39,572 nt of DNA. Source: a virus (lineage: Duplodnaviria; Heunggongvirae; Uroviricota; Caudoviricetes). This document shows, one piece after another, positions 3,085 through 31,214 of the stretch. Within the stretch, counting starts at the first letter, position 1. Each line of letters starts with the position of its first letter. The position numbers and the translations under genes were made by a program. The notes under the pieces were generated by a model, which saw nothing but the letters and a program-made list of their open reading frames with translations, searched no databases and was not told the DNA's origin. Where the stretch lies: the IMG/VR virus record IMGVR_UViG_2531839178_000021, positions 1-39,572 of that record, one strand, 5' to 3'.

Positions 3085-3097
3085 GGGACACAGCCTA

Positions 3098-3295
3098 ACA
3101 GTCAGTCAGCGTCGTACTTTATTTATGCACGCCGGATTGACAGAAAAAGAATTTAATCAGCCATACTGGCGAATTAATGAAGAGTCATGTTACTGGCGTG
3201 ATGCTTTATTCCGTGCATTACGTGAATTATTCAGCCTGTTTGAGTATGCACCGACAATTCTGACGTCGGTAAAACCAGAGCAATATCTGCATTAA
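3098..3295 (+). pseudogene. B: Replication gene B, 3' part (65 codons) downstream of IS
   Basis: in-frame continuation TVSQRRTLFMHAGLTEKEFNQPYWRINEESCYWRDALFRALRELFSLFEYAPTILTSVKPEQYLH, stop 3293-3295. Confidence 0.8.
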
Positions 3296-3358
3296 GTAAT
3301 TAACCAGAGTTTTTAACGCACTTAATTGTGCGGGGCTTCTTTTTGCCTGGAGAAAGTC

Positions 3359-3583
3359 ATGCATACAGTTTCTGAAAATCAGTGCGGTAAATACGCATTA
3401 CTGCTGCAACAGGCCAGAACCGAAGCACAGGCCGACGCGGCGACGCGCTTTTCTTCTCATCTTGACGTCATGATTCGCCACATCACAAAGGCGGAGTTAT
3501 CCCGCGTGGAGATAGTCGAGCTGCTCAGTCAGGAGTCGGAAAAATTTCACAATATCGGATTGTCTCGCGGGGAGGTACTTTGA
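3359..3583 (+). CDS. Small early-operon protein (P2 orf80-like)
   Basis: ATG 3359 with GGAGAAAG upstream; [24 protein letters not shown]. Confidence 0.6.
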
Positions 3584-3882
3584 TGTCCTGCTCTCATTCA
3601 GTTGTATTACTGAATAACGCCTTAAAAATCGCCGTTATGAAAAATGGCGATTTGTCTCTTATTCAACTTTGTCTTGATAAAGAAAAACGCGACATCACTG
3701 AATCTGTTATCGCGATTTATCAGAATGAATTAAACCTCCTGTCTGATGTGGTCAATTTACTTGTTAAACGCGCTGTATTCCACAAGCAAATTTCCTCAGT
3801 GGATGAACTGACAAAATTAACGACAGAACTTGCCAGTTATTGCGCTGATGTATACAGGAAACTTAACGATAAAAGGAGCTGA
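3580..3882 (+). CDS. Small early-operon protein (P2 orf81-like)
   Basis: 100-aa ORF, start overlaps previous stop (ATGA). Confidence 0.6.
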
Positions 3883-3884
3883 TA

Positions 3885-4109
3885 ATGCCGGACAACGTAG
3901 ATTTTATTCAGGAACAACAGGCTGAATTACTGGAGCGCCAGATTAACGCGGCAAGGGTAAAACATTGCGGTGCTTCTGCGCTGGTTTGCGAAGAGTGTGA
4001 CGCGCCAATACCTGCTGCCCGTCGTGCGGCTTATCCGTCAGCCACGCGTTGTGTTTCCTGTCAGTCAGTCTTTGAAGCAAAAAATAAACATTACCGGAGA
4101 ACGGCATGA
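3885..4109 (+). CDS. Small C4 zinc-finger protein (TraR/DksA-like; P2 orf82-like)
   Basis: CEECDAPIPAARRAAYPSATRCVSCQ, a Cx2C..Cx2C motif. Confidence 0.65.
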   Translation: MPDNVDFIQEQQAELLERQINAARVKHCGASALVCEECDAPIPAARRAAYPSATRCVSCQSVFEAKNKHYRRTA

Positions 4110-4381
4110 GTATTCGTATTGAAATTGGCGAACGTTATGTCGTTACCAGTGACAGCTTCCAGTTTATTCTCCACGAGAAAAAGAGAGCGGAAAGCGGTAA
4201 AAACGCCGGTCAGGAATGGCTGGCGGTGGTTGGTTATTACCCGAAATTAAGCCAGCTTGTTTCCGGCCTGATGCATCACGATATTCTGACCGGAAGCGCA
4301 AAGTCTTTTGCTGATTTAAACGCGCAGGTTGAGCAACTCAGCAAGCGTTGTTCAGAGGCTTTTGGCTCATATGGCCGTTAA
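4106..4381 (+). CDS. Small early-operon protein (P2 orf83-like)
   Basis: 91-aa ORF MSIRIEIGERYVVTSDSFQFILHEKKRAESGKNAGQEW; translationally coupled. Confidence 0.6.
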   Translation: MSIRIEIGERYVVTSDSFQFILHEKKRAESGKNAGQEWLAVVGYYPKLSQLVSGLMHHDILTGSAKSFADLNAQVEQLSKRCSEAFGSYGR

Positions 4382-6653
4382 AGCCTCCGGGCGTTTTGTC
4401 CCTCCGTCAGCATTTGCTGCAGGCACCGGTAAGGCGTTTACCGGTGCTTATGCATGGAACGCGCCACGCGAGGCTGTCGGGCGCGAAAGACCCTTTACAC
4501 GTGACGAGATGCGTCAGGTGCAAGGTGTTTTATCCACGATTAACCGCCTGCCTTACTTTTTGCGCTCGCTGTTTACTTCACGCTATGACTACATCCGGCG
4601 CAATAAAAGCCCGGTACACGGGTTTTATTTCCTCACATCCACTTTTCAGCGTCGTTTATGGCCGCGCATTGAGCGTGTGAATCAGCGCCATGAAATGAAC
4701 ACCGACGCGTCGTTGCTGTTTCTGGCAGAGCGTGACCATTATGCGCGCCTGCCGGGAATGAATGACAAGGAGCTGAAAAGGTTTGCCGCCCGTATCTCAT
4801 CGCAGCTTTTCATGATGTATGAGGAACTCTGCGATGCCTGGGTGGATGCGCATGGCGAAAAAGAATCGCTGTTTACGGATGAGGCGCAGGCGCATCTGTA
4901 TGGTCATGTTGCTGGCGCTGCACGTGCTTTCAATATTTCCCCGCTTTACTGGAAAAAATACCGTAAAGGATAGATGACCACGAGGCAGGCATATTCTGCC
5001 ATTGCCCGTCTGTTTAACGATGAGTGGTGGACTCATCAGCTTAAAGGCCAGCGTATGCGCTGGCATGAGGCGTTATTGATAGCTGTCGGGGAGGTCAATA
5101 AAGACCGTTCTCCTTATGCCAGTAAACATGCCATTCGTGATGTGCGTGCGCGCCGTCAGGCAAATCTGGAGTTTCTTAAATCGTGTGACCTTGAAAACAG
5201 GGAAACCGGCGAACGCATCGACCTTATCAGTAAGGTGATGGGCAGTATTTCTAATCCTGAAATTCGCCGGATGGAGCTGATGAACACCATTGCCGGTATT
5301 GAGCGTTACGCCGCCGCAGAGGGTGATGTGGAGATGTTTATCACGCTGACCGCGCCGTCAAAGTATCACCCGACACGTCAGGTCGGAAAAGGCGAAAGTA
5401 AAACCGTCCAGCTTAATCACGGCTGGAATGATGAGGCATTTAATCCGAAGGATGCGCAGCGTTATCTCTGCCGTATCTGGAGCCTGATGCGCACGGCATT
5501 CAAGGATAATGATTTACAGGTCTACGGTTTGCGAGTCGTCGAGCCACACCACGACGGAACGCCGCACTGGCATATGATGCTTTTTTGTAATCCACGCCAG
5601 CGTAACCAGATTATCGAAATCATGCGTCGCTACGCGCTCAAAGAGGATGGCGACGAAAGAGGAGCTGCGCGAAACCGTTTTCAGGCAAAACACCTTAACC
5701 GGGGCGGTGCTGCGGGATATATCGCGAAATACATTTCAAAAAACATCGACGGCTATGCACTGGATGGTCAGCTCGATAACGATACCGGCAGGCCGCTGAA
5801 AGACACCGCCGCGGCTGTTACTGCATGGGCGTCAACGTGGCGCATCCCGCAATTTAAAACGGTTGGCCTGCCGACAATGGGGGCTTACCGTGAACTACGC
5901 AAATTGCCTCGCGGCGTCAGTATTGCTGATGAGTTTGACGAACGCGTCGAGGCTGCACGCGCTGCCGCAGACAGTGGTGATTTTGCGTTGTATATCAGCG
6001 CGCAGGGTGGGGCAAATGTTCCGCGCGATTGTCAGACTGTCAGGGTTGCCCGTAGTCCGTCGGATGAAGTTAACGAGTACGAGGAAGAAGTCGAGAGAGT
6101 GGTCGGCATTTACGCGCCGCATCTCGGCGCGCGTCATATTCATATCACCAGAACGACGGACTGGCGCATTGTTCCGAAAGTGCCGGTCGTTGAGCCTTTG
6201 ACTTTAAAAAGCGGCATCGCCGCGCCTCGGAGTCCTGTCAATAACTGTGGAAAGCTCACCGGTGGTGATACTTCGTTACCGGCTCCCACACCTTCTGAAC
6301 ACGCCGCAGCAGTGCTTAATCTGGTTGATGACGGTGTTATCGAATGGAATGACACGGAGGTCGTGAGGGCGCTCAGGGGCGCATTAAAACACGGCCTGAG
6401 AAGACCAAACCGTCAGCAAAGAAACGGAAGCCCGTTAAAACCGCATGAAATAGCGCCATCGGCCAGACTGACCCGGTCGGAAAGAATGCAAATTACCCGT
6501 ATCCGCGTTGACCTTGCTCAGAACGGTATCAGGCCGCAGCGATGGGAGCTTGAGGCGCTGGCGCGTGGTGCGACCGTAAATTACAACGGGAAAAAATTTA
6601 CGTATCCGGTCGCTGATGAGTGGAGTTGGTTTTATTGTTATTCAGAGCAATAA
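4371..6653 (+). pseudogene. A: Replication initiation protein A (rolling-circle nickase), 761 codons, interrupted by an in-frame TAG at 4971-4973
   Basis: ORFs 4329-4973 and 4974-6653 are in the same frame separated only by TAG; combined span from ATG 4371 matches the recalled 761-aa length of P2 gpA; HUH-like region ..PHWHMMLF.. and GYIAKYISK present. Confidence 0.8.
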
Positions 6654-6769
6654 ACATCTGATTTAATTTGTTGCATAATAGTAAAATTGCTGTTTATCTG
6701 CATGTGTTAACTATTGATAATTATGTTGCTAATAATGTGTGCAAATTTATACTGAAAAAGGTGAAAACG

Positions 6770-6922
6770 ATGAATGATATCTTTGTTCTTACAAGGGAAG
6801 AGCTTGAAACACTAGATTATAGTGTTTTTATGCATATACCAGTTACATTTCATGCACATAAAATAAAAAATATCTGGATGGGATTGCTGAATCATCAGAA
6901 AACCCCAAAGAGAAAAAATTAG
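6770..6922 (+). CDS. Cargo locus ORF segment 1 (frame 2), possibly the N-terminus of one larger gene
   Basis: ATG 6770 with AAGGTG 7 nt upstream; low-GC; frame-1 ORF opens at 6862 overlapping this segment across A6 runs (6865-6870, 6913-6918). Confidence 0.45.
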   Translation: MNDIFVLTREELETLDYSVFMHIPVTFHAHKIKNIWMGLLNHQKTPKRKN

Positions 6923-6936
6923 CATCTCTTTTTGGT

Positions 6937-7242
6937 ATGCTATATAGTTTCAATTTGCAAGTTGTTAACAACACTCCATCATTTGAACCCCAAATGATTT
7001 GGGGTAATAAAAGATCAATATTGCCTGAAGATTTTGATGAGCAGGTGAATGACTGTCTTTTATATGTTTCTCAAAAAATAACCAATCCATTTTTGTTATC
7101 AAGAATATATGATGTTGTTTGGTGTAATAATCGGAAAAATAAAGACGTGGCAATTAAAGCAATTGATTCCTATGCTGAAATGCTAAATATAGCAATTGAA
7201 AAGCTAATAATAAAAACGAAAGCATGGATGAAAGTGATTTAA
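6937..7242 (+). CDS. Cargo locus ORF segment 2 (frame 1), hypothetical
   Basis: 101-aa ORF MLYSFNLQVVNNTPSFEPQMIWGNKRS...; overlaps segment 3 by 19 nt across an A5 run (7212-7216). Confidence 0.45.
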   Translation: MLYSFNLQVVNNTPSFEPQMIWGNKRSILPEDFDEQVNDCLLYVSQKITNPFLLSRIYDVVWCNNRKNKDVAIKAIDSYAEMLNIAIEKLIIKTKAWMKVI

Positions 7243-8600
7243 ATTGCTTTATTTTTGCTCGTGATTATATTGCTAGGGCTTTGCACATTAATAAAATGGT
7301 CTACCCTAGAAAATCAGAAGGAAACATGGCGATTAAAAATGCCATTCATTCTCTTTATAGTATTCAAAATGAAAGATTAATCTTTGAAGGTTTCAATAAT
7401 TTGACTTGGTTTATGGTGCGTGATTTTGATGGGTATAATCTGCAGTATGCGGAAAATGCTGAGAAGATGGCTGAGCAGCATAAAGATAAAAAATATTATG
7501 ATGCTGTAAAATCACTTTATATGACAAGTGCAGTTATTTATGAAAAAAATGGTGAGTATGAACGTGCCAAGAGATGTAAACTGGCATCTGCAAATATTAC
7601 TATTAAAGTTGCAACAGATCGACCTGATAATATGGGTAAGATCTCTTGGTTAAGAACAGCTATCTCTGAATTAAGACAGTACGGTGGTGATAGCCAACAG
7701 ATAGAAGATTTAAAGGAACAACTTGCTAATTTGAGAGAAGAAGTAAGGAGTGAATATGTCACTTTAAGCCATTCTATTGATATTAGTGACTTGGTTGCTG
7801 AAAGTGAAAAAAAACTGACGGGGCGTTCTTTGCCCGATATATTCAAAGTTTTAATGCGTGAAACACCGATTGAAAATATTGAAAGCATGAGGGAACAAGT
7901 TTTAAGATTATCAGAAAAAAGTTTATTCTCTAGTTTTGTTGGAACAGAAATTAATGATGAGAGTGGGCGTAAGATATATACAATCCCGCCGTTGGATAAT
8001 AAAAAAGATATGAGTGATGATGTTGTTATTGATCAATATCTAAGAAATTTCGAGATTACTCATAAGATTTTTGTAAACGGTGTCTTTGAACCTGCTCGCT
8101 ATGTACTTTCTCAAGAACATGGCTTGACGTTGTCAACATTCGTTAAATTGGTTACAACTAGTCCAATTGTCAAGCCGGAGTTTAGGGAGATTTTTAATTT
8201 GGGCTTTTACAAATTATGGCAGGGAGATTACATCAGTGCAGCTTATCTTTTAATACCACAAATGGAGGGTATGGTTCGTTATTATTATGAGCTTAGTGGA
8301 AAGGATGCTACTAGATATTTGGATAAGGGATTAGAGGAGTCAACAAGTATTTCTCAGCTTCTAGATAAATGCAGAGATGATTTGGAAAGTATCTTTTCTA
8401 AAAATCTTGTTTTGACTATCGATGTTCTTTTTAACAGAAAGAGTGGGGCAACCTTAAGACATAAATTAGCACATGGTAATTTATATACTAATGCTTGTTA
8501 CGATGAAACAACGACATATGCATGCATCCTGATTTTCTTTCTGTGTGCTTATCCTCTCCTACCATATTTTGATACTGTTTTTGAACAGGGCTCTGTTTGA
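7224..8600 (+). CDS. Cargo protein, 458 aa, unknown function with C-terminal HEPN-like R-x4-H motif; candidate abortive-infection/defence effector
   Basis: low-GC ORF; motif RHKLAHG encoded at 8457-8477; coiled-coil-like EDLKEQLANLREEVRSEY; no Walker A, so not an Old-type ATPase. Confidence 0.6.
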   Translation: MDESDLNCFIFARDYIARALHINKMVYPRKSEGNMAIKNAIHSLYSIQNERLIFEGFNNLTWFMVRDFDGYNLQYAENAEKMAEQHKDKKYYDAVKSLYMTSAVIYEKNGEYERAKRCKLASANITIKVATDRPDNMGKISWLRTAISELRQYGGDSQQIEDLKEQLANLREEVRSEYVTLSHSIDISDLVAESEKKLTGRSLPDIFKVLMRETPIENIESMREQVLRLSEKSLFSSFVGTEINDESGRKIYTIPPLDNKKDMSDDVVIDQYLRNFEITHKIFVNGVFEPARYVLSQEHGLTLSTFVKLVTTSPIVKPEFREIFNLGFYKLWQGDYISAAYLLIPQMEGMVRYYYELSGKDATRYLDKGLEESTSISQLLDKCRDDLESIFSKNLVLTIDVLFNRKSGATLRHKLAHGNLYTNACYDETTTYACILIFFLCAYPLLPYFDTVFEQGSV

Positions 8601-8751
8601 TAACGTATACGTTGAGGCATAAAACCTATGCATACTTAGCTGCATCAATTTGCACGAGGTATTTCAGTATGCATTTTCTGCGTAATAGTAGGGATTGCTT
8701 GGTTTGGTAGTTGTAATTCAACTGCATTCAAACCGACCCATGAAGCGGGCG

Positions 8752-8770
8752 GGCGAGGCGGGGAAAGCAC
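8752..8770. other. cos: cos site (19-nt cohesive end sequence of P2-type phages)
   Basis: GGCGAGGCGGGGAAAGCAC matches the recalled P2 cohesive end; located between the A-side cargo and Q as expected. Confidence 0.7.
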
Positions 8771-8912
8771 TGCGCGCTGGCGGTGGTGCTGATTTTATTT
8801 TTTCAGCGTCTCAGCGCGTCGTGACGGCGCTTAGTCTGCCCGTTGGGGTGTTGGTGTGTCTGCGGGCTGTTTTGTGCTGTGGTGAGCGTGTGAGGGCGTG
8901 ATGACGGGATGT

Positions 8913-8934
8913 AAAAAAGCCGCCCGCAGGCGGC
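8913..8934 (-). terminator. Rho-independent terminator downstream of Q
   Basis: minus strand GCCGCC-tgcg-GGCGGC followed by TTTTTT. Confidence 0.6.
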
Positions 8935-8939
8935 GATGT

Positions 8940-9929
8940 TCAGCCGTTGTCAGTGTCCAGTGAGTAGTTTTTAAAGCGGATGACCTCCTGACCGAGCCAG
9001 CCGTTTATCTCGCGGATCCTGTCCTGTAACGGGATAAGCTCATTGCGGACAAAGACCTTTGCCACTTTCTCAATATCACCCAGCGACCCGACGTTCTCCG
9101 GCTTGCCGCCCATCAACTGAAAGGGGATGCGGTGCGCGTCAAGCAGGTCAGCGGCGCTGGCTTTTTTGATATTAAAAAAATCGTCCTTCGTTGCCACTTC
9201 ACTGAGCGGGATAATTTTAATGCCGTCGGCTTTTCCCTGTGGGGCATAGAGAAACAGGTTTTTAAAGTTGTTGCGGCCTTTCGACTTCACCATGTTTTCG
9301 CGAAGCGTTTCGATATCGTTGCGATCCTGCACGGCATCAGTGACGTACATGATATATCCGGCATGAGCGCCGTTTTCGTAATACTTGCGGCGGAACAGCG
9401 TGGCCGACTCATTCAGCCAGGCAGAATTAAGGGCGCTGAGATATTCCGGCAGACCGTACAGCTCCTGATTAATATCCGGCTCCAGCAGGTGAAACACGGA
9501 TCCGGGCGCGAAGGCTGTCGGCTCGTTAAAGGACGGCACCCACCAGTAAACATCCTCCTCCACGCCACGGCGGGTATATTTTGCCGGTGAGGTTTCCAGT
9601 CTGATGACCTTACCGGTGGTGCTGTAACGCTTTTCCAGAAACGCATTACCGAACACCAGAAAATCCAGCACAAAGCGGCTGAAATCCTGCTGGGACAGCC
9701 ACGGGTGCGGGATAAACGTTGAAGCCAGAATATTACGTTTGACGTAAATCGGTGAGCTGTGATGCACGGCAGCACGCAGGCTTTTTGCCAGACCGGTAAA
9801 GCTGATTGGTGGCTCATACCATCTGCTGTTACTGATGCATTCGACGTAATCCAGAATGTCACGGTGGTCGAGTACCGGCACCGGCTCACCAAAGGTGAAT
9901 ACCTCCATTTTCGGGGCGCTGGCGGTCAT
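8940..9929 (-). CDS. Q: Portal protein Q; N-terminus frame-broken (probable true start ATG at 9973)
   Basis: 329-aa ORF MTASAPKMEVFTFGEPVPVLDHRDILDYVECISNSRWYEPP; upstream ATG at 9973-9971 with GGAG 8 nt upstream, out of frame by one base across a 5-nt homopolymer (plus-strand T-run 9960-9964). Confidence 0.85.
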   Translation of the reverse strand: MTASAPKMEVFTFGEPVPVLDHRDILDYVECISNSRWYEPPISFTGLAKSLRAAVHHSSPIYVKRNILASTFIPHPWLSQQDFSRFVLDFLVFGNAFLEKRYSTTGKVIRLETSPAKYTRRGVEEDVYWWVPSFNEPTAFAPGSVFHLLEPDINQELYGLPEYLSALNSAWLNESATLFRRKYYENGAHAGYIMYVTDAVQDRNDIETLRENMVKSKGRNNFKNLFLYAPQGKADGIKIIPLSEVATKDDFFNIKKASAADLLDAHRIPFQLMGGKPENVGSLGDIEKVAKVFVRNELIPLQDRIREINGWLGQEVIRFKNYSLDTDNG

Positions 9930-10034
9930 TGTTTTTGCCGCAGGTTGCGGTGTTTTCCCTTTTTCTTGCTCATCAGTAAAACTCCAGAATGGTGGATGTC
10001 AGCGGAGTGCTGATACCGGCGGTGAGTGGCTCAT

Positions 10035-11744
10035 TTAACAGGGCGTGCATGGTCGCCCAGGCGAGGTCGGCGTGGCTGGCTTCCTCGCTGCGGCTGGCCT
10101 CATAGGTGGCCTGCGTCCGCTGCTGGTCATGGTCTTGCGGATAGCCATGAACGAGCTGGTGATGTCGGTGGCGCTGACGTCATATTCCAGACAGCCACGG
10201 CGGATAACGTCTTTTGCCTTGAGCACCATTGCGGTTTTCATTTCCGGCGTGTAGCGGATGTCGCGCGCGGCGGGATAGAACGAGCGCACAAGCTGGAACA
10301 CGCCGACACCGAGGCCGGTGGCATCAATACCGATGTATTCGACGTTGTATTTTTCGGTGAGTTTGCGGATGGATTCCGTCTGGGTGGCAAAGTCCATACC
10401 TTTCCACTGGTGACGCTCAAGTATTCTGAATTTGCCACCGGCCACCACCGGCGGTGCCAGTACCACGCATCCGGCGCTGTCGCCACGGTGTGACGGGTCG
10501 TAACCAATCCATACCGGTCGGGAGCCGAACGGATTGGCGGCAAACGGCGCATAGTCTTCCCATTCTTCCAGCGTGTCGACCATGCAGCGTTGCAGCTCCT
10601 CGAACGGGAATACCGATGCCTTGTCGTCAACAAATTCACACATGAACAGGTTTTTAAAATCGTCGGCGCTGTTTTCGCGTTTAAGCTGCTCAATGTCGAA
10701 CAGCGTGCAGCCACCTTTCAGGGCGTCCTCAATGGTGACAATCTGCCGCCACTGGCCGTCCGCACAGAGAAGCCCACCGGCAAGGGCGTTATGACTGATG
10801 TCGATTTCCACGCGTTCGGCGGCGCTGGCGCGTCCCCGGTTAAACAGTTCACCCGACCAGAACGGGTAGGCGTCGTGCGCCAGCGTGGACGGGGTGGAGA
10901 AATAGGTCGAGCGCAGGTGACTCTGTGAGGCCATACCTGATGCCATCTTACGCAGTACCTGAAAATTCGGGATCCAGAACATCTCGTCGACGTACAGGTC
11001 GCCGTTATGGCTCTGCGCGGTGTTGGAGTTGGTGCCGAGAAAAATCAGTTTTGCGCCGTTATTGCCCAGGACAATCGGGTCACCGGTCAGGTCAACGTCA
11101 ACCAGCCGGGCAAAGGCGATGATGTATTCGCGGAACACATACGCCTGTGTTTTACTGGCCGACAGAAAAATCTGGTTATGACCGGTTTTCAGGGCGCGCA
11201 GCAGCGCCTCGCGGGAAAAATAAAACGTCGCGCCAATCTGGCGGGATTTCAGGATATCGCGGATGCGGTGCTCAAGCCCGGCGCGATACCAGTGCAACTG
11301 ATATTCGAAAGACTGCTCAAAGAAAATCTGCTCCAGCTTTTCGATGGCTTCGTCACTGAAAAAATTCTTTTTCGGTTTGCGACGCCCGCCTTTGTTGCGG
11401 TTAGCGACGTTCGGATTAAGGTCTGCCTCGTTGCCGGTCTGACTGTAGCGGTTGACCCGCGCCAGTCGTTCAATCTGGCGTCCCAGCAGGTCAATTTCCT
11501 TGAAGTCACCGCCGGTTTTCTGCGGTTTGATAATGAGCTGGGTCAGCCGCGCTTCCAGACTCATTTCGACACGGCTGATGGGGGCAACGCTGTCCCAGCC
11601 GTCGCGCTGTTTCCAGCTCTGCACCGTCGGGCGTTTCATCTGCAACATGGCGGCAATCTGCGGCACGGAAAACCCCTGCCAGTACAGCAGCGCCGCCTGA
11701 CGACGCGGGTCGTGCAAAAGAGTGGTGTCTGTGGTGATGGTCAT
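10035..11744 (-). CDS. P: Terminase large (ATPase) subunit P; 3' end frame-broken
   Basis: MTITTDTTLLHDPRRQAALLYWQGFSVPQIAAM...; C-terminal ~30 codons are Pro/Arg-rich, while the adjacent frame gives ..YEASRSEEASHADLAWATMHALLNEPLTAGISTPLTSTILEFY ending in TGA overlapping the upstream Q ATG (TGATG). Confidence 0.85.
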   Translation of the reverse strand: MTITTDTTLLHDPRRQAALLYWQGFSVPQIAAMLQMKRPTVQSWKQRDGWDSVAPISRVEMSLEARLTQLIIKPQKTGGDFKEIDLLGRQIERLARVNRYSQTGNEADLNPNVANRNKGGRRKPKKNFFSDEAIEKLEQIFFEQSFEYQLHWYRAGLEHRIRDILKSRQIGATFYFSREALLRALKTGHNQIFLSASKTQAYVFREYIIAFARLVDVDLTGDPIVLGNNGAKLIFLGTNSNTAQSHNGDLYVDEMFWIPNFQVLRKMASGMASQSHLRSTYFSTPSTLAHDAYPFWSGELFNRGRASAAERVEIDISHNALAGGLLCADGQWRQIVTIEDALKGGCTLFDIEQLKRENSADDFKNLFMCEFVDDKASVFPFEELQRCMVDTLEEWEDYAPFAANPFGSRPVWIGYDPSHRGDSAGCVVLAPPVVAGGKFRILERHQWKGMDFATQTESIRKLTEKYNVEYIGIDATGLGVGVFQLVRSFYPAARDIRYTPEMKTAMVLKAKDVIRRGCLEYDVSATDITSSFMAIRKTMTSSGRRPPMRPAAARKPATPTSPGRPCTPC

Positions 11745-11917
11745 GAATACCTCGCCGTGATGAATACACGGCAAGGCTACTGAGTCGCGCCCCGCGATTC
11801 GCTAAGGTGCTGTTGTGTCAGTGATAAGCCATCCGGGACTGATGGCGGAGGATGCGCATCGTCGGGAAACTGATGCCGACATGTGACTCCTCTAATCACT
11901 ATTCAGGACTCCTGACA

Positions 11918-12772
11918 ATGGCAAAAAAAGTCTCAAAATTCTTTCGTATCGGCGTTGAGGGTGACACCTGTGACGGGCGTGTCATCAGTGCGCAGGATAT
12001 TCAGGAAATGGCCGAAACCTTTGACCCGCGTGTCTATGGTTGCCGCATTAACCTGGAACATCTGCGCGGCATCCTGCCTGACGGTATTTTTAAACGTTAT
12101 GGCGATGTGGTCGAACTGAAGGCCGAAAAGATTGATGACGATTCGGCGCTGAAAGGCAAATGGGCGCTGTTTGCGAAAATCACCCCGACCGATGACCTTA
12201 TCGCGATGAACAAGGCCGCGCAGAAGGTCTACACCTCAATGGAAATTCAGCCGAACTTTGCCAACACCGGCAAATGTTATCTGGTGGGGCTGGCCGTCAC
12301 CGATGACCCGGCAAGCCTCGGCACGGAATATCTGGAGTTCTGCCGCACGGCAAAACACAACCCTCTGAACCGCTTCAAATTAAGCCCTGAGAACCTTATT
12401 TCAGTGGCAACGCCCGTTGAGCTGGAATTTGAAGACCTGCCTGAAACCGTGTTCACCGCCCTGACCGAAAAGGTGAAGTCCATTTTTGGCCGCAAACAGG
12501 CCAGCGATGACGCCCGCCTGAATGACGTGCATGAAGCGGTGACCGCTGTTGCTGAACATGTGCAGGAAAAACTGAGCGCCACTGAGCAGCGCCTCGCTGA
12601 GATGGAAACCGCCTTTTCCGCACTTAAGCAGGATGTGACTGACAGGGCGGATGAAACCAGCCAGGCATTCACCCGCCTGAAAAACAGTCTCGACAGCACC
12701 GAAAGTCTGACCCAGCAGCGCCGCAGCAAAGCCACCGGCGGTGGCGGTGACGCCCTGATGACGAACTGCTGA
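11918..12772 (+). CDS. O: Capsid scaffolding protein O
   Basis: MAKKVSKFFRIGVEGDTCDGRVISAQDIQEMAETFDPRVYGCRINLEHLRG; divergent from P. Confidence 0.85.
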   Translation: MAKKVSKFFRIGVEGDTCDGRVISAQDIQEMAETFDPRVYGCRINLEHLRGILPDGIFKRYGDVVELKAEKIDDDSALKGKWALFAKITPTDDLIAMNKAAQKVYTSMEIQPNFANTGKCYLVGLAVTDDPASLGTEYLEFCRTAKHNPLNRFKLSPENLISVATPVELEFEDLPETVFTALTEKVKSIFGRKQASDDARLNDVHEAVTAVAEHVQEKLSATEQRLAEMETAFSALKQDVTDRADETSQAFTRLKNSLDSTESLTQQRRSKATGGGGDALMTNC

Positions 12773-12845
12773 CCGGCGTCAGTCAGTCCGGGAAAACCTT
12801 CACGATTAACCCTTAATTTCAGGAAAAACTATGCGCCAGGAAACC

Positions 12846-17850: not shown

Positions 17851-18294
17851 GTTTAAGCGTTTTGAAGACCGGCTGGCCGGACTGACTGAATCGCTGTCAC
17901 CGTCAGGGCGTCGGCGACTGAGCGCCGAACTGGCGAAACGTCTGCGTCAGAGTCAGCAGCGTCGGGTGATGGCACAGAAAGCCCCGGACGGCACACCCTA
18001 CGCGCCACGTCAGCAGCAGAGCGCCAGAAAAAGACCGGTCGCGTTAAGCGAAAAATGTTTGCGAAACTTATCACCAGTCGTTTTTTGCATATCCGCGCCA
18101 GCCCGGAACAGGCATCAATGGAGTTTTACGGCGGGAAGTCACCGAAAATCGCCAGTGTGCATCAGTTCGGTCTGTCGGAAGAAAACCGGAAAGACGGTAA
18201 GAAAATTGATTATCCGGCGCGTCCTCTGCTCGGCTTTACCGGTGAGGATGTGCAGATGATTGAAGAGATTATCCTGGCTCACCTGAATCGTTAG
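17843..18294 (+). pseudogene. S: Tail completion protein S, frame-broken at an A5 run (18028-18032)
   Basis: ORF 17843-18259 (MNEFKRFEDRLAGLTESLSPSGRRRLSAELAKRLRQSQQ...SARK) shifts to ORF 18055-18294 (MFAKLITSRFLHIRASPEQ...ILAHLNR) by a 1-nt deletion-type break. Confidence 0.75.
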
Positions 18295-25298: not shown

Positions 25299-25677
25299 AC
25301 CCTCGATTACATCAAAGAGCCCTATAGCCGAAACCTGCACCATAGCCATCTCTGTAGAATTCGTCCTAGGGGCTTTTAACAGACCTAGTTGTATGGATCG
25401 GAAGGAAATATTAAAGCTCAAGGCGTCAGTCCAGTGCTGTCCTGTTTGCTTACCACACGAAAGAGTGCTGCTTGTACCTGCTAACTAATGGTATGCGGAG
25501 TGAGGGGGGCGGGTAGAACCAAAAGCACTTACTACGTGTGGCGCTCTCCTGGAAGAGGAGACGTCGAAGTGATAACGCTAACAACAGTCTTACTGGTGAT
25601 GCAAATAATGCTAGCTGGTCTGGTTGCCATCAAGCAACTGACCGGACGCCCGTAAGGGATGGAGGAACTTGATTAAA

Positions 25678-25707
25678 GGCAGGGGGGTTACCTCCCCTGC
25701 CTTTTTC
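25678..25707 (+). terminator. Strong rho-independent terminator
   Basis: GGCAGGGG-ggttacct-CCCCTGCC followed by TTTTT; lies ~470 nt downstream of G stop with no ORF of 60 aa or more between. Confidence 0.75.
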
Positions 25708-25769
25708 GTTTCTGCGCAAGTTAGCTCTGTTATTATAATCCTTACTCACACTGTAAGGACATAGTTCAA

Positions 25770-26033
25770 ATGACTGAATGGCTTAATGCACATTTTGGTG
25801 CAGACGCAGCTACCTATCTTAGCTTATTAGTCGGCGTACTGGCACTGTTTGGTATTGGGGGCGGTGTTACATATAGAATCAGACAGCAAAACAACATAAA
25901 ACAGAAGGCAAAGAAAACCGAGGGTGATGTGAACCAGGCCGGGCGGGATATTAATCAGACCACCAACGTTTACCACACATCCAATGAATCTACTGAGGAC
26001 CCTGTAAAAAAAAGCAAGATGAACATGATCTGA
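25770..26033 (+). CDS. Membrane-anchored hypothetical protein, N-terminal segment (single TM helix)
   Basis: TATAAT at 25734-25739; MTEWLNAHFGADAATYLSLLVGVLALFGIGGGV; ORF ends just after an A8 run (26006-26013) where the next ORF's frame opens. Confidence 0.55.
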   Translation: MTEWLNAHFGADAATYLSLLVGVLALFGIGGGVTYRIRQQNNIKQKAKKTEGDVNQAGRDINQTTNVYHTSNESTEDPVKKSKMNMI

Positions 26034-26056
26034 AGATAATCGACCAGATCCTTGAA

Positions 26057-26452
26057 TTGCTGCCTTATGAGGATACTACTCAATGGGTTGAGCAGAGCTA
26101 CCTGAGCGGTATACGGCAAGATGTTTGCTTAAACATTGAAAAAGCTGAAAAATTTAGCGGTGAAAAGTATCGGTTATTCAATACTGAAGTGAATGGTGCG
26201 AAAGACGCTTTTTTGGACGCTATGACCGCATACGTAGATAGTACGCTACCATTTATGAGTGTTGATTACCCGAACAGAAAGCCAGTGATGCTAAGCCTTC
26301 CCCATGACTGGAAGAGTAAGAGTGTTGAATCGGAGGCAAACTTCCGCTTTCATCAGCAAAATGTGCGTGAAACATCGGGGGGGATGATTGCGCGCTATGA
26401 GGATTTTGTCAGGACATTTAAGGCTCATGGATTCATAAGCGATAAACTGTAA
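26057..26452 (+). CDS. Hypothetical protein segment lacking an ATG start; probably the C-terminal part of one ~227-aa gene 25770-26452 broken by a 1-nt deletion
   Basis: frame open from 25997; ORF-track start is TTG; frame offset from 25770 is of deletion type. Confidence 0.5.
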   Translation: MLPYEDTTQWVEQSYLSGIRQDVCLNIEKAEKFSGEKYRLFNTEVNGAKDAFLDAMTAYVDSTLPFMSVDYPNRKPVMLSLPHDWKSKSVESEANFRFHQQNVRETSGGMIARYEDFVRTFKAHGFISDKL

Positions 26453-26545
26453 AGGCGCAGTGGGTCAGCGAACACCGCAACGACAGAACCGCGTAAGCGG
26501 TAAAATCAGCTTGTTAACTGGCGAGTTTATAGCCGTCCCTCCGGG

Positions 26546-27846
26546 CTGAGGGATCCCCACAAAATTACTGCTAATAAACCAGTACCATATTTCGGTAGGT
26601 TCTGGACAGATGGTTTAGAACTGTGCTCAGTACTGTTCGTCTTAAAATAAGTGGCGAGTGTCGAAGAACATTCTTCGCTAACGTCAGATATGAGATAACC
26701 CGCCGGGATTTAATGCTGTTAGCCTGATATTTCAGGTGTAACCCTTTATTTTCAGCGTGATAACCGAGTAACCACATTACGATAGTGCTCAACGTTGCCA
26801 GCAGACTCAGAACCAGAATTCTTCCTGTTGAACGACTTTTGCTGGCCCGAAGACCAAATCCGAAGCGCCCGTTCTTTTCATCACGAAAGTTTTGCTCTAT
26901 CTGCATTCGCCGACTGTATAACTTGATGATTTCTCGCGCTCTGAAGTCATTTGTACTGCTGAAGATCAACCAGGCTTCTTTTGCTGATTTGCTCTGTTCT
27001 TTGTCTGTTTTGTTTAAACCACTCTGACCTTTCGAACGTTTCTTTTTTCGCCCTTTTGCCGATTTCTTATAGGTGTAAAAATGCCCCCGGATGCTTTTTT
27101 TCCTTTCTTTAACCAGCCTTCCAGCCCCCATATATTCCGGTGTTTTACATTCAGGGCTATCCGACACTTTTAACCATCTTTCAGGCGCGTTATCGAGGCA
27201 ATACTGAACGTTATTTCTGATCCGACCAATAAAATCCCAGCCCAGAGAAGTAATATGGTGAAACCATGCGCTCTGAAATCCAGCATCCGTGACAATAATA
27301 ACCCTGGCATCGGGGGGCAGGGATTGAGCAAGGGAATCAAGGAAATCATGTTGTATCAATGGATTATTTTGTTTTTCAGAAGGAACAACCTTACTCAATA
27401 ACGGAATGGAACGCCCGTCACACAGAAGGCTGGCACGAAGAACATGATGCTCCTGGGAGGGATAGCCACTCCAGTCTACGGCTATTACACATAAAGATAA
27501 CTGCCGTGTCAGCATTGAAGTGATATTCCTGAAAATCATTGGAATATCGCGATGGAGCGCCTCATTACCCATGAGGCGATCAATACGTTTGCTCTTATTC
27601 TTAACTTGTGCATTACCCGGGAAAAAACGTCCGATACTGGTCAGCGTCAGAGATGCTCCGTTGATTAACGCCACTGTGGCATCCATCAGGGCATTTTGTC
27701 GGTACTGATGAAATGGTGCTAAGGCATCCCGGAAGAAATTCTGACATACTTTATGAACAGGCATAGCAGTGATCTCATTGAATTGTTGGCACAAATCAGT
27801 AGATCACATAATGCTATGTCTGTCTCGTTTTCTGGGAATTCCTCAG
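26546..27846 (-). mobile_element. IS10-like (IS4-family) insertion sequence, ~1.3 kb, with 9-bp target-site duplication CCCTCCGGG
   Basis: ends CTGAGGGATCCCC (26546-) and its reverse complement (-27846); identical 9-mers at 26537-26545 and 27847-27855. Confidence 0.8.
26571..27764 (-). CDS. IS10-like transposase (~397 aa)
   Basis: KRIDRLMGN, VDWS, VLRAS, TDAGFQSAWF, SLGW, SKGRKKKRS, SAKEAW, IKLYSRRMQIEQNFRD, FGLRAS: motifs shared with the IS10 transposase. Confidence 0.8.
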   Translation of the reverse strand: MPVHKVCQNFFRDALAPFHQYRQNALMDATVALINGASLTLTSIGRFFPGNAQVKNKSKRIDRLMGNEALHRDIPMIFRNITSMLTRQLSLCVIAVDWSGYPSQEHHVLRASLLCDGRSIPLLSKVVPSEKQNNPLIQHDFLDSLAQSLPPDARVIIVTDAGFQSAWFHHITSLGWDFIGRIRNNVQYCLDNAPERWLKVSDSPECKTPEYMGAGRLVKERKKSIRGHFYTYKKSAKGRKKKRSKGQSGLNKTDKEQSKSAKEAWLIFSSTNDFRAREIIKLYSRRMQIEQNFRDEKNGRFGFGLRASKSRSTGRILVLSLLATLSTIVMWLLGYHAENKGLHLKYQANSIKSRRVISYLTLAKNVLRHSPLILRRTVLSTVLNHLSRTYRNMVLVY

Positions 27847-27931
27847 CCCTCCGGGGCGGCTTTTTTATGACTATAATCGACAGAATCACCTGAACGTCCA
27901 GGTGGGTTTCCCTGACAGGACGTCAAGGAAT

Positions 27932-27970
27932 GTTCGCTTTGTGCCAGGAGCGGACGTTGCCAGCATTGAG
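27932..27970 (+). repeat. ~39-bp direct repeat, copy B (partner at 25260-25298)
   Basis: see copy A. Confidence 0.7.
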
Positions 27971-28116
27971 TTTTCAGTTTTCAAAGGTATATCTTTAGAT
28001 TTAGTTCACTTAGAATGAGCGTGTTAAAGTTTTCGGTTATGTGAGTATATTGAACATAACAAATAAACAATAATTTTTGTATTCCATTTAGGATATAAAA
28101 AAGAGGGATTTGAGTT

Positions 28117-28902
28117 ATGTACGATTATAGTTTTTTACTTACTCCATCTACAGGATTTGTTAAAGGATTATGTGGAGTTTGGTCGAATGATTTCTCTATA
28201 AATGATGATTCTGACTCTGATTTAGGGCAAACAGATATTCATTTACTTTCATCTCCTCATTTGAATATCATATCCGACCCAAATGAATTGGCTTCCAAGT
28301 TAAAAGGTTTGTTGATGCTCATGAACGGCGCACTTAGCGTTCTTTATGGTTTTGAAAGATATCAATCTTTTGGTCCTCTTTCTATTTCTGGAAGTGAAGG
28401 CATTAATTACTCGGAAATATGCGGCTTTAAATCAATGGATGTAACTCAGGTAAACCCCTTTAATTTCCATGACATACAGCAACCACACCCTCGCGCTGAT
28501 AATTTTTCACGATTAATTAATTTATCATCTAAACATGAATCCTTACGTGTTGTTTTAGGTATGTGTGCCTTAGGTTATGATTGGGTTAATCTTTATCGTT
28601 TGTGGGAAACAATTAGAGAATATGTATATGATAAATATGTGAAAGGTATACTAAATTTCCCCGACGCTTATAAAGGCAAGAAATATCAGAGAGATAAAGT
28701 AATTAGCATGGCTTTTAATATTGATGAAAAGGAAATCAGCAGATTCACGGGCACTGCTAATAGCTTTGAACTGTTAGGGTATCTTGCGAGACATGGAAAG
28801 GGAAGTTCCGGAGGGATATTAAAAAATCCGATGTCAAGAGTTGACGCAAGCATTTTCGTACACAAAGCAACTTACAAATATTGTAAGTTATTTTTGATGT
28901 AA
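28117..28902 (+). CDS. Hypothetical cargo protein (261 aa), unknown function
   Basis: low-GC ORF with AAGAGGGA RBS; no recognisable motif. Confidence 0.6.
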   Translation: MYDYSFLLTPSTGFVKGLCGVWSNDFSINDDSDSDLGQTDIHLLSSPHLNIISDPNELASKLKGLLMLMNGALSVLYGFERYQSFGPLSISGSEGINYSEICGFKSMDVTQVNPFNFHDIQQPHPRADNFSRLINLSSKHESLRVVLGMCALGYDWVNLYRLWETIREYVYDKYVKGILNFPDAYKGKKYQRDKVISMAFNIDEKEISRFTGTANSFELLGYLARHGKGSSGGILKNPMSRVDASIFVHKATYKYCKLFLM

Positions 28903-29004
28903 GTAAAAAGTTGAAGCTATAATACTCAAAGTATCGAAAACTACGTTCGTCGTGCACTCGAAAACAATATGCTTATTGTGTCTGCACTAATTACTCAAGG
29001 TCCG

Positions 29005-29041
29005 AGAAAAATGGCGAAGCTCATCTTTTTCAGGCTTCGCC
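29005..29041 (-). terminator. Hairpin terminator between the convergent genes 28117-28902 and 29064-29816
   Basis: GGCGAAGC-13 nt loop-GCTTCGCC; on the minus strand followed by ATTTTT. Confidence 0.5.
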
Positions 29042-29063
29042 AACTTGAGTTATTGGTTAAAAT

Positions 29064-29816
29064 TCATTTAGGAATAATAGAATGCAATTCGTGACTCACC
29101 TGGATTTCATAGTGTTTCAATAGTTCTCCGATGTTAATTCCTACTACCTTACGAACTGCGCCGAGGGAGAAGTTAAGCTCCTCAATGCCCGGCCGATCTG
29201 GCGTTGAATTCATATAGTGTCGGCACGCACGGACAATTGACTCGACGATCAACGATAGCGGAGACTCAGGTGCAATCTCGGAGCGAATCGCCGTAAGAGA
29301 GAGTCGGAGCTCCTTCAAAGAATCCGAGACTCGTGCTGGATCCTCTTGAGCATATGGCAGATAAAGAGAACTCTTGTCTTCCAATAAATGGATCAACCGC
29401 AGAGCAATTTTCTCGTCTGGGCGATGCGATAGAAATTGAAACATTAGCCTCTTTCCTCCCTCCAAGCACTCCTTCATTAGTGATTCGTGGTCACGTTTCC
29501 ATTTTCGCAAATACTCGGCGGGGTAGCCCATACCGCCATTCTTATCAACTAAATCAGCACAAGCTCCGCACAACCATATAGCATTTTTTATGCTCTTCCG
29601 CTCTGTTTCTGACTGAGACATGTCATAGCGCGGTCCGCCAGGGCTCGCCGCGCAGATATGCGCCGCCTCACCCGTCTTGATAGAAAGATTTTCCGCCAAT
29701 TGATCCGGGCCGATTGTTACCCTATGACAAGAGGGATTGCTACAAATATATGTAGCGCGCTCTGCTACCTTACCTACAACGCTTGGAGGAAAGTTGTGCC
29801 TATTTGTCTTGGTCAT
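29064..29816 (-). CDS. Hypothetical protein with N-terminal Cys/His cluster resembling an HNH/His-Me-finger nuclease motif
   Basis: YICSNPSCH ... AAHICAASPGG ... NAIWLCGACADLVD; mid-GC; the IS630 copy lies ~70 bp upstream of its start. Confidence 0.45.
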   Translation of the reverse strand: MTKTNRHNFPPSVVGKVAERATYICSNPSCHRVTIGPDQLAENLSIKTGEAAHICAASPGGPRYDMSQSETERKSIKNAIWLCGACADLVDKNGGMGYPAEYLRKWKRDHESLMKECLEGGKRLMFQFLSHRPDEKIALRLIHLLEDKSSLYLPYAQEDPARVSDSLKELRLSLTAIRSEIAPESPLSLIVESIVRACRHYMNSTPDRPGIEELNFSLGAVRKVVGINIGELLKHYEIQVSHELHSIIPK

Positions 29817-29887
29817 AAAAGTTATGCTTCTTTGTTTTTTTCATCTATGTGGGGAGAATAAAATCATACTTTTTATATCTGATCCTA

Positions 29888-31041
29888 AATAGCTGCGCTT
29901 AATACCGCTACACTTTTGCCAGTCCATGTTTGCCTCCGGGGAATGGGCTGACGGTTTCCATAAAATGGCGAACTTTTTTCAACAGTTGCCACATTGAGCG
30001 GCACTGATGATTACGCGTTATTGTGTCGTGAAGTGCCTGCCATAGCCGTTCAACATGATTCACCCATGGCGAGTAAACCGGCTGATAAATGACCCTGAAC
30101 TTCGGGTTCTCCTTCAGCCAGCTCTGTGTTTCCCGGCTTTTGTGGATAATGTAGTTGTCCACGATCAGCGTGATGGTTTTCGCCCGACGCTATGTCGCTT
30201 TAAGCCGCTTCAGCAGGCTGATGAACAGCGCCGAACTTTTTGCTGTTGCCGCCCACATAGCTGACTTTACCTGTCCCGCTGTGCAGCGCTCCGGCCAGAT
30301 AATATTTTTCATTCTGTCCCGGCGTGACCACCCGTTTTTGCTGTCCGCGCAGTTGCCAGTCCGCACCGATTTTGGGATGAAGATGGATATCCACTTCATC
30401 TTCATAAAAGACCGGATGCTCTGCGCTGCATTCGTCCAGTGCTTTATGGATTGCTGCCATCTTTTCATCTTTATGCGGGTCACGGATACGCAGAGTTGGC
30501 GCAGCCCTTCGCCACACAATCCCCGCAGACGGCAACCAGCGGCGAACGGTTCCGGCATTTAACTGGCAACCGGTTATCTCATTGATTTTTATTGCCAGCA
30601 GTTCTGTACTCCAGCGTGAACGCTGGTAGCCAAAGTCGCCGGGAGAATGTTTTACCAGCTCACGTAACAGTGTGCAGATATGCTCAAACGGCCAGCGACG
30701 GGCACGCCCGGCAGGTAATGATTTCAGTCCCTCAACACCCGACTGCGTGAACCAGTTAATCCAGCGTCCAACAGAGGAACGGGCGCAGCAGAGCGTTCTG
30801 GCAACGTCGCTGACACGGTCGCCCCGGTGCAGCATCAGCATGGCAGTCAGTCTGCGGGCATAATTTTTATCGTGTGTTTTATGGATGGCTTTCTGCATCA
30901 GGCGTCGTTCGTCACGGGAAATTGGTGCTATGATCGGCATTGCTCAGTCCGGTTGGTGATTTGTTTTGATTTGGCGATTGATCAGATCGCACAATCCGGG
31001 CTAAGTTCCCTCAAAATGATCTACTATTCCGCGCAGCTATT
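29888..31041 (-). mobile_element. IS630-family insertion sequence (1154 bp), TA duplication within a CTAG target
   Basis: terminal repeats aatagctgcgc (29888-) and gcgcagctatt (-31041); TA at 29886-29887 and 31042-31043 flanked by C and G. Confidence 0.85.
29908..30940 (-). pseudogene. IS630 transposase, split into two ORFs (30200-30940 and 29908-30162) by a frame break
   Basis: N-part MPIIAPISRDERRLMQKAIHKTHDKNYARRL.. and C-part ..NYIIHKSRETQSWLKENPKFRVIYQPVYSPWVNHVERLW together approximate the recalled single 343-aa IS630 transposase. Confidence 0.75.
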
Positions 31042-31214
31042 TAGGTCTGACCAGCAACCTATTGATCAAAAAACCAAGATATTAGCTAAAAAAATCAGCA
31101 TACTTGAGACCAAGCTCAATGTCCGCTCCTCGCTCAAAGCAGACTGTCAGATTTGATAGCATTTGGGCTATGTAAATTGTCAGGCGGAAAATGAGTGAGT
31201 ACAAATCAGGACAG

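Follow-up and report, generated by a model that had tools for sequence, protein, structure and literature searches.

A twice-frameshifted gene for a catalogued DUF7380–DUF4209 protein, with a predicted HEPN domain, in the gpA–cos cargo hotspot of a P2-like Escherichia coli prophage

What is encoded by the AT-rich island that lies between gene A and cos in a P2-like prophage of E. coli, and does it constitute a new anti-phage system? The stretch of DNA analysed (39,572 nt in full, hereafter the window; IMG/VR record IMGVR_UViG_2531839178_000021) is an E. coli chromosomal segment with a P2-like prophage inserted beside ogrK/yegQ, and the parts that it shares with Peduovirus genomes are 96–97% identical to these. 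GC content is 0.30–0.35 over positions 6601–8600, compared to 0.51–0.60 in the flanking phage backbone, and the stop codon of gene A (6651–6653) forms the upstream edge of the low-GC stretch, with the island itself spanning 6654–8600. A P2-type cos core, GGCGAGGCGGGGAAAGCAC, which is also present in the P4 clones of Table S2B in Rousset et al. (2022), marks the downstream edge of the hotspot. The island corresponds to the gpA–cos/gpQ cargo hotspot of this P2-like prophage and carries one gene, at the site between gpA and cos/portal where the initial annotation had placed it as cargo at the P2 tin/old position. Like P2 old and tin, the gene occupies this slot and travels as cargo on a prophage, but it differs from them in encoding a protein of an unrelated family: a Walker A pattern is absent, and there is no Old match, nor any Pfam or PADLOC match to AAA or Toprim models, which bears out the initial view that this is not an Old-type ATPase. 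The features of the locus, from the leader to cos, are:

6651–6679, 6707–6736 and 6726–6753: promoter-like sites from a promoter scan, not above shuffle expectation
6654–6769, + strand: AT-rich non-coding leader with promoter-like hexamers and the RBS AAGGTG (6758–6763)
6770–6922 (within an ORF at 6668–6922), 6937–7242 and 7224–8600, all + strand: ORF pieces from the ORF list
6770–8600, + strand: frameshift-interrupted CDS of the 610-aa DUF7380–DUF4209 (PDC-S39) protein, from alignment to intact copies
6865–6870, + strand: frameshift site 1, A6 here and A7 in all references
7212–7216, + strand: frameshift site 2, A5 here and A6 in all references
8752–8770, + strand: P2-type cos core, an exact single match with 0 chance matches expected

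The RBS described earlier, AAGGTG, was indeed found ahead of ATG 6770, 6 nt upstream, and this ATG is the RefSeq start and agrees with the N-termini in the homologue alignment. As to the promoter-like sequence that had been pointed out upstream, the hexamers exist but are not enriched, with 13 found against 8.7 ± 3.4 in shuffles of this AT-rich DNA. An Rfam scan of 6400–9100 gave no credible match.

The three ORF pieces are a single 610-aa gene at 6770–8600, interrupted by deletion-type breaks at A-runs as first proposed. Aligned to the intact copy in NZ_CP018983, a 610-aa CDS, the window's copy has exactly two 1-nt deletions and four substitutions; the aligner put the deletions at 6864 and 7211, and the A-run positions listed above were taken from the sequence itself. 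Megablast against 5426 complete E. coli genomes detected DNA at least 99.5% identical in 55, always under one CDS, and a 401-nt query across both sites spans 403 nt in each of these 55 genomes carrying the gene, so that neither deletion occurs in any of them. The intact CDS, in NZ_CP018983 and the 54 others, is WP_021535452.1 (‘DUF7380 domain-containing protein’, 610 aa), and a matching CDS, URC09609.1, is annotated as a ‘DUF4209 domain-containing protein’. Phage vB_EcoM-569R9 (ON470601) also has the gene intact, in DNA at least 99.5% identical. Changes private to the window's gene copy are one synonymous substitution and the two frameshifts, and the chromosomal copy in E. coli S88 differs from it by the two A's and by 14 substitutions. 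The alleles of E. coli S88 and Ecol_867 are among the intact ones. We also considered whether the A-runs might be phase-variable, which the in-frame length in all 55 other genomes ruled out.

Are the two frameshifts errors of the assembly or real decay? In the best-aligned block of the window (3096–12845), every one of the four indels removes a single base, and three lie in homopolymers of at least five, as does another deletion at 18027; because of this pattern we regard assembly or homopolymer error, in what is a single assembly, as the probable origin of the frameshifts in the window's copy. Assemblies of long-read or 454-type data typically err in this one-directional way, and neither the intactness of the gene in 55 of 55 other genomes nor the presence of just a lone private substitution, a synonymous one, beside two private frameshifts fits easily with the alternative, that the locus is a true pseudogene in a decaying, defective P2-like prophage, with both frameshifts real and the gene inactive here. 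This alternative is the less probable of the two, but not remote. gpA has a CAG-to-TAG amber substitution at 4971–4973, a change unlike the usual homopolymer errors, and 1-nt deletions are likewise found in portal (9959, in a T-run), terminase (10110), the lysis region (18027, in an A-run) and tail tube (32733); moreover, natural inactivation of the gene exists, as in locus L011, where an IS21-family element follows aa 585. With the gene untranslatable as written and essential phage genes damaged, the gene may therefore be dead here.

The restored protein could be assigned to known families, contrary to the initial annotation, in which no assignable family was found: it matches DUF7380 and DUF4209 in Pfam and the candidate system PDC-S39 in PADLOC. 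Its domains and motifs are:

6779–7319, + strand: N-terminal DUF7380 domain (aa 4–184 of the restored protein; Pfam PF24098, E 3.8e-39)
8007–8597, + strand: C-terminal helical domain with a predicted HEPN fold (aa 414–610)
8256–8279, + strand: P-Q-x-E-x-x-x-R motif (P497, Q498, E500, R504), invariant in 27/27 sequences down to 22% identity
8337–8537, + strand: stretch matching the DUF4209 profile (aa 524–590; Pfam PF13910, E 7.4e-4, 20.0 bits)
8457–8474, + strand: R564-H-K-L-A-H569, an HEPN Rx4H motif, with R, A, H and G invariant in 27/27

The DUF7380 match is clear (134.8 bits, where the cut-off is 27), it recurs in 20 of 20 close homologues, and a deep alignment identified R82, D88, D115 and R170 as invariant residues of the domain. 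For DUF4209, the 20.0 bits obtained here are under the gathering score of 22.3, as are the weak matches of 17 of the 20 close homologues; precomputed PF13910 matches are found on many relatives, and one full-length homologue (L018) scores 31.8 bits, above the gathering score. Membership in DUF4209, inconclusive by the protein's own score, thus appears to hold by transitive homology via L018. The latter, a protein of 607 aa encoded in a P2-like phage contig of 59% GC by a gene directly abutting that for portal, is 26–27% identical to the restored protein, aligns with it end to end (E 5e-66) and matches the same PDC-S39 models (E 4e-95). The restored protein itself matches these models full length (E 7.1e-85 over aa 40–598 and 6.2e-84 over aa 7–596) and is a member of PDC-S39 from which nothing sets it apart, PDC-S39 being a computational candidate only.

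Close homologues (48–67% identity; from Kosakonia, Klebsiella and Enterobacter) agree throughout with the restored protein in length and domains, and the wider family extends to Pseudomonas, Dickeya, Klebsiella, Burkholderia and Dyella. When 1.84 billion cluster representatives were searched with a profile, 3358 members were retrieved at E ≤1e-3 and 614 at E ≤1e-30, most of the 3358 being 600–640 aa long and matched full length. NCBIfam has no family for the restored protein, and in PHROGs it matches ‘unknown function’ families only. A scan of genome contigs with peptide patterns found no relatives, the patterns being too specific.

Nor is the system undescribed, as had been suggested, for besides its entry as PDC-S39 in PADLOC it is System #13 of Rousset et al. 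(2022; PMC9122126), who surveyed 18,150 P2 hotspots in E. coli. In their Table S5B, System #13 is listed with the Pfam assignment ‘DUF4209’, 193 occurrences and the protein sequence of the window's gene, and WP_021535452 is the sole hotspot gene in several genomes in Table S5A (PMC9122126). The gene is hence fairly common, with 193 of 18,150 hotspot loci and presence in ~1% of complete E. coli genomes. The same study cloned it from E. coli S88 as pFR103 (‘Putative HEPN’, P2, one gene), which appears in Table S2B among the ‘additional tested systems’, as distinct from the validated systems in Table S2A (PMC9122126). The pFR103 insert begins in the 3′ end of gpA and has the same leader (given as ‘native promoter’), RBS and ORF as the window. 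System #13/pFR103 and the window thus have in common the protein (over the part shown in the table), the upstream DNA and the gpA–cos position, and they differ in that the S88 copy in pFR103 is intact whereas that of the window is frameshifted twice. The gene is therefore a known, catalogued and once-tested candidate and not a new system or family.

The cloning and plating check that the initial annotation had put forward was essentially carried out with pFR103, with the outcome that the system was not validated against eight phages. It was tested under its native promoter on a low-copy pSC101 plasmid in MG1655, with phages lambda, T4, P1, 186cIts, T7, CLB_P2, LF82_P8 and AL505_P2, and it is absent from the validated systems, no activity against any of the eight being named for it (PMC9122126). 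The authors caution that a small phage panel underestimates defence, and one PARIS homologue in their study was silent from its native promoter and active once induced (PMC9122126). Elsewhere in the literature covered, PDC-S39 appears solely in surveys of genomes, as a call made by PADLOC, and a search for functional characterisation of PDC-S39, DUF4209, DUF7380 or WP_021535452 retrieved none, in a literature coverage that was incomplete.

We examined the genomic surroundings of relatives. In 15 of 15 loci with flanks, including that of the 26%-identical homologue in the 59% GC P2-like phage (L018), the gene is found between gpA (36–100% identical to that of the window) and portal, in the same orientation. 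It stands alone in the E. coli hotspot, and in other hosts its small neighbours vary, so that it behaves as a single-gene unit; no conserved antitoxin-like partner gene was found in the E. coli hotspots or in the loci of other hosts. Outside P2, a homologue of the P. syringae group is cargo of an ICE, where its neighbours are a KAP NTPase of 1128 aa and an Mrr-type restriction domain, and a very common K. pneumoniae homologue lies among metabolic genes, in a non-mobile neighbourhood that is not a defence island.

The explanation that we consider best, and somewhat more probable than not, is that the island carries this catalogued DUF7380–DUF4209 hotspot gene and that its product is most likely a trigger-activated HEPN RNase for abortive-infection defence. 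The defence-like company that the P. syringae copy keeps outside P2 supports it. Counting against it are the lack of reported protection by the same gene under its native promoter with eight phages (PMC9122126), the low pLDDT of the motif loop, the sub-threshold DUF4209 score and the location of the K. pneumoniae homologue outside any defence island. Anti-phage function taken by itself, given this one small negative test, stands at or just short of an even balance.

A second, rather unlikely, alternative is that the protein is a functional HEPN RNase whose role is not to defend against unrelated phages: a toxin-like factor for prophage addiction or stabilisation, for instance, a weapon against P2 relatives or the P4 satellite, or a protein that regulates RNA of host or phage in the P2 cycle. 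Such a role would fit the lack of phenotype with eight mostly unrelated phages, as well as the presence in the P2 hotspot of non-defence cargo such as partition systems and a cytolethal distending toxin, and of the AC1 system, which acts on P2 itself (PMC9122126). The common Klebsiella homologue in its non-mobile metabolic neighbourhood also points this way. However, the negative panel included 186cIts (PMC9122126), the gene has no conserved antitoxin-like partner, being alone in the E. coli hotspot and among variable neighbours elsewhere, and both its listing as a PADLOC candidate and the KAP NTPase and Mrr next to the P. syringae copy speak for defence.

Both readings take the C-terminal domain to be HEPN, and we checked this assignment at the level of motif, profile and fold. 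The RHKLAH at 8457–8474, which the initial annotation had recognised as an HEPN-type motif, is present with R and H invariant in 27 of 27 sequences and is backed by the DUF4209 homology. By itself an Rx4-6H pattern is not above chance (3 occurrences in the protein compared to 1.4 ± 1.1 in shuffles, 78% of which have at least one), and the motif therefore owes its meaning to conservation together with profile and fold matches and not to the pattern. In the 27-sequence alignment, which reaches down to 22% identity, R564, A568, H569 and G570 are invariant, and at residue 565, next to the R, 22 sequences have H and five have N. E500, in the upstream P-Q-x-E-x-x-x-R motif, is a candidate for the acidic active-site residue in the scheme of Anantharaman et al. 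(2013), so that the signature as a whole reads R564-[H/N]-x3-H569 plus E500. A further Rx6H (R444…H451) was weighed as another possible active site and discarded, since the L018 homologue does not keep it.

This signature has all the elements described for an active HEPN site, namely Rx4-6H, a polar residue (N, H or D) that directly follows the R, and an acidic residue further upstream (Anantharaman et al., 2013; PMC3710099). In the same analysis DUF4209 is the ‘C6orf70’ family of the HEPN superfamily, which keeps the motif, is found in TPR fusions and in R-M-related operons, and whose bacterial versions are predicted to be catalytically active (PMC3710099). The full-length predicted structure is all-alpha with helical repeats mid-protein (pLDDT 78.8, pTM 0.52), and the C-terminal domain alone (8007–8597) was predicted with a pLDDT of 79 and a pTM of 0.79, the loop with the motif having low pLDDT in these models. 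The nearest structural neighbours of the C-terminal domain, at modest scores, are HEPN RNases of defence systems: Csm6, the AbiA C-terminal HEPN, LsoA/RnlA, HEPN-MNT toxins and ApeA. A full-length Foldseek search of the PDB gave only weak TPR-like matches to helical repeats (E above 1e-3) and no assignment for the N-terminal domain, and PDB sequence searches with full-length and C-terminal profiles gave nothing meaningful (best E 0.11) and hence no solved relative. The C-terminal domain is thus very likely HEPN, mostly on the strength of its homology at the profile level and of the conservation of the catalytic signature, with the fold contributing moderately. That it is instead a catalytically inert helical bundle in a structural or binding protein, with R…H kept for binding, is improbable: Rx4-6H patterns do occur by chance, the structural scores are modest and inactive HEPN versions have been noted (Anantharaman et al., 2013; PMC3710099), but R, H, the upstream E and H/N after the R, that is the full active-HEPN signature, are invariant or conservatively kept down to 22% identity, and C6orf70/DUF4209 is listed as motif-keeping and predicted active (PMC3710099).

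In a defence role the protein might act as follows. HEPN active sites are normally built from two domains, as in the structures of Csm6, Cas13 and HEPN-MNT, and the protein should for this reason dimerise, a second HEPN domain probably being needed to form the active site and homodimerisation being the simplest way to supply it. The C-terminal domain would then be a metal-independent HEPN RNase using R564, H569 and E500. Its cleavage would be expected to leave a 2′,3′-cyclic phosphate, by analogy with KEN, PrrC and RloC (PMC3710099). DUF7380 and the helical-repeat middle are a candidate sensor or autoinhibitor that would keep the protein inactive until a phage-derived cue appears. RNA cleavage would next stop translation and abort the infection, to the benefit of the lysogen population and of its resident prophage.

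With Csm6, AbiA, LsoA/RnlA, HEPN-MNT and ApeA the window's protein would share the expected chemistry, that of a metal-independent RNase acting via R and H, but PADLOC and the PDB sequence searches revealed no relationship to them at the sequence level. It also differs from these HEPN RNases in architecture, as it lacks a CARF domain, an RT, an antitoxin or an MNT partner and has DUF7380 and helical repeats that are unrelated to them.

We can tentatively go further, though with more doubt than conviction, and suggest that PDC-S39 is a mechanistically new single-protein immune sensor, in which a site formed by R82, D88, D115 and R170 of DUF7380 would read a phage or satellite cue and switch on the C6orf70-type HEPN RNase. 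On this view the negative test in the literature would mean only that the trigger was missing from the eight-phage panel or that native expression was weak, and a family with over 3000 cluster representatives and distant ties to eukaryotic ERMARD would gain its first function. What is of remaining value at this locus is the function of the large, strictly conserved DUF7380–DUF4209 HEPN family and not the frameshifted copy in the window. Compared to the C6orf70/ERMARD HEPN (PF13910), the window's protein has an N-terminal DUF7380 not described by Anantharaman et al. (2013), but both have in common Rx4H, a polar residue after the R, an upstream acidic residue and helical repeats (TPR).

The N-terminal DUF7380 domain of the HEPN-gene product (the 610-aa DUF7380-DUF4209 protein restored by putting back both missing A's) contains four charged residues, R82, D88, D115 and R170 (window ~7011-7277), and because these are invariant in relatives down to 22% identity, the conservation hints at a binding or catalytic site in this domain. 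A fold assignment was sought for the DUF7380 domain and none was obtained. At the other end of the protein, one IMG/VR contig (L011 7652-10150) carries a copy of the HEPN gene whose 3' end is interrupted after aa 585 by an IS21-family element with ORFs for 513-aa IstA-like and 249-aa IstB-like proteins. The helix after the RHKLAHGN motif is lost through this insertion, and the L011 copy is a natural knockout.

Homologues were also found outside P2 hotspots. In the Pseudomonas syringae group (L022/L023 4319-13800), a 659-aa homologue is carried as ICE cargo. Its gene neighbours are a 1128-aa KAP NTPase and an Mrr_cat protein, and a TraI_2 relaxase and an integrase come after it, a setting that resembles a defence island. 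The 622-aa homologue of Klebsiella pneumoniae (L020/L021 8001-9869), for which the collection lists 1391 blocks, is located amid genes for LysR regulators, amidohydrolases and acetyltransferases. Mobile-element genes are absent from its vicinity, which is unusual for a defence candidate. Within E. coli P2 hotspots, a distinct second 'DUF4209' protein, System #55, occurs 76 times and begins with MSEFDVFSISVDDFKK... (Rousset 2022 Table S5B, PMC9122126); the weaker match, to PHROG 31613, may reflect this second protein.

Compared with the Ecol_867 prophage, indels in well-aligned regions of the window were exclusively deletions, with no insertions, and gene A, encoding the replication endonuclease, bears an in-frame amber codon that cuts gpA into 200-aa and 559-aa parts and that arose by substitution rather than by a homopolymer indel.

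Changes in the window relative to the Ecol_867 prophage
4971-4973, gene A, TAG in place of CAG (Gln)
9959, 1-base deletion in a T-run, portal broken
10110, 1-base deletion, terminase broken
18027, 1-base deletion in an A-run, lysis-region gene broken
32733, 1-base deletion, tail tube broken

A second cargo region (window ~25300-31100), with no counterpart in the Ecol_867 prophage, is flanked by tail-fibre assembly and tail-sheath genes, that is, at the Z/fun position.

ORFs of the second cargo region
26571-27794, - strand, IS-type transposase (DDE_Tnp_1)
28117-28902, unknown ORF, 261 aa
29064-29816, - strand, 250-aa protein with hits to the PADLOC models for PDC-M68A and HNH-type endonuclease effectors (E 7e-24)
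30200-30940, - strand, IS-type transposase (HTH/DDE_3)
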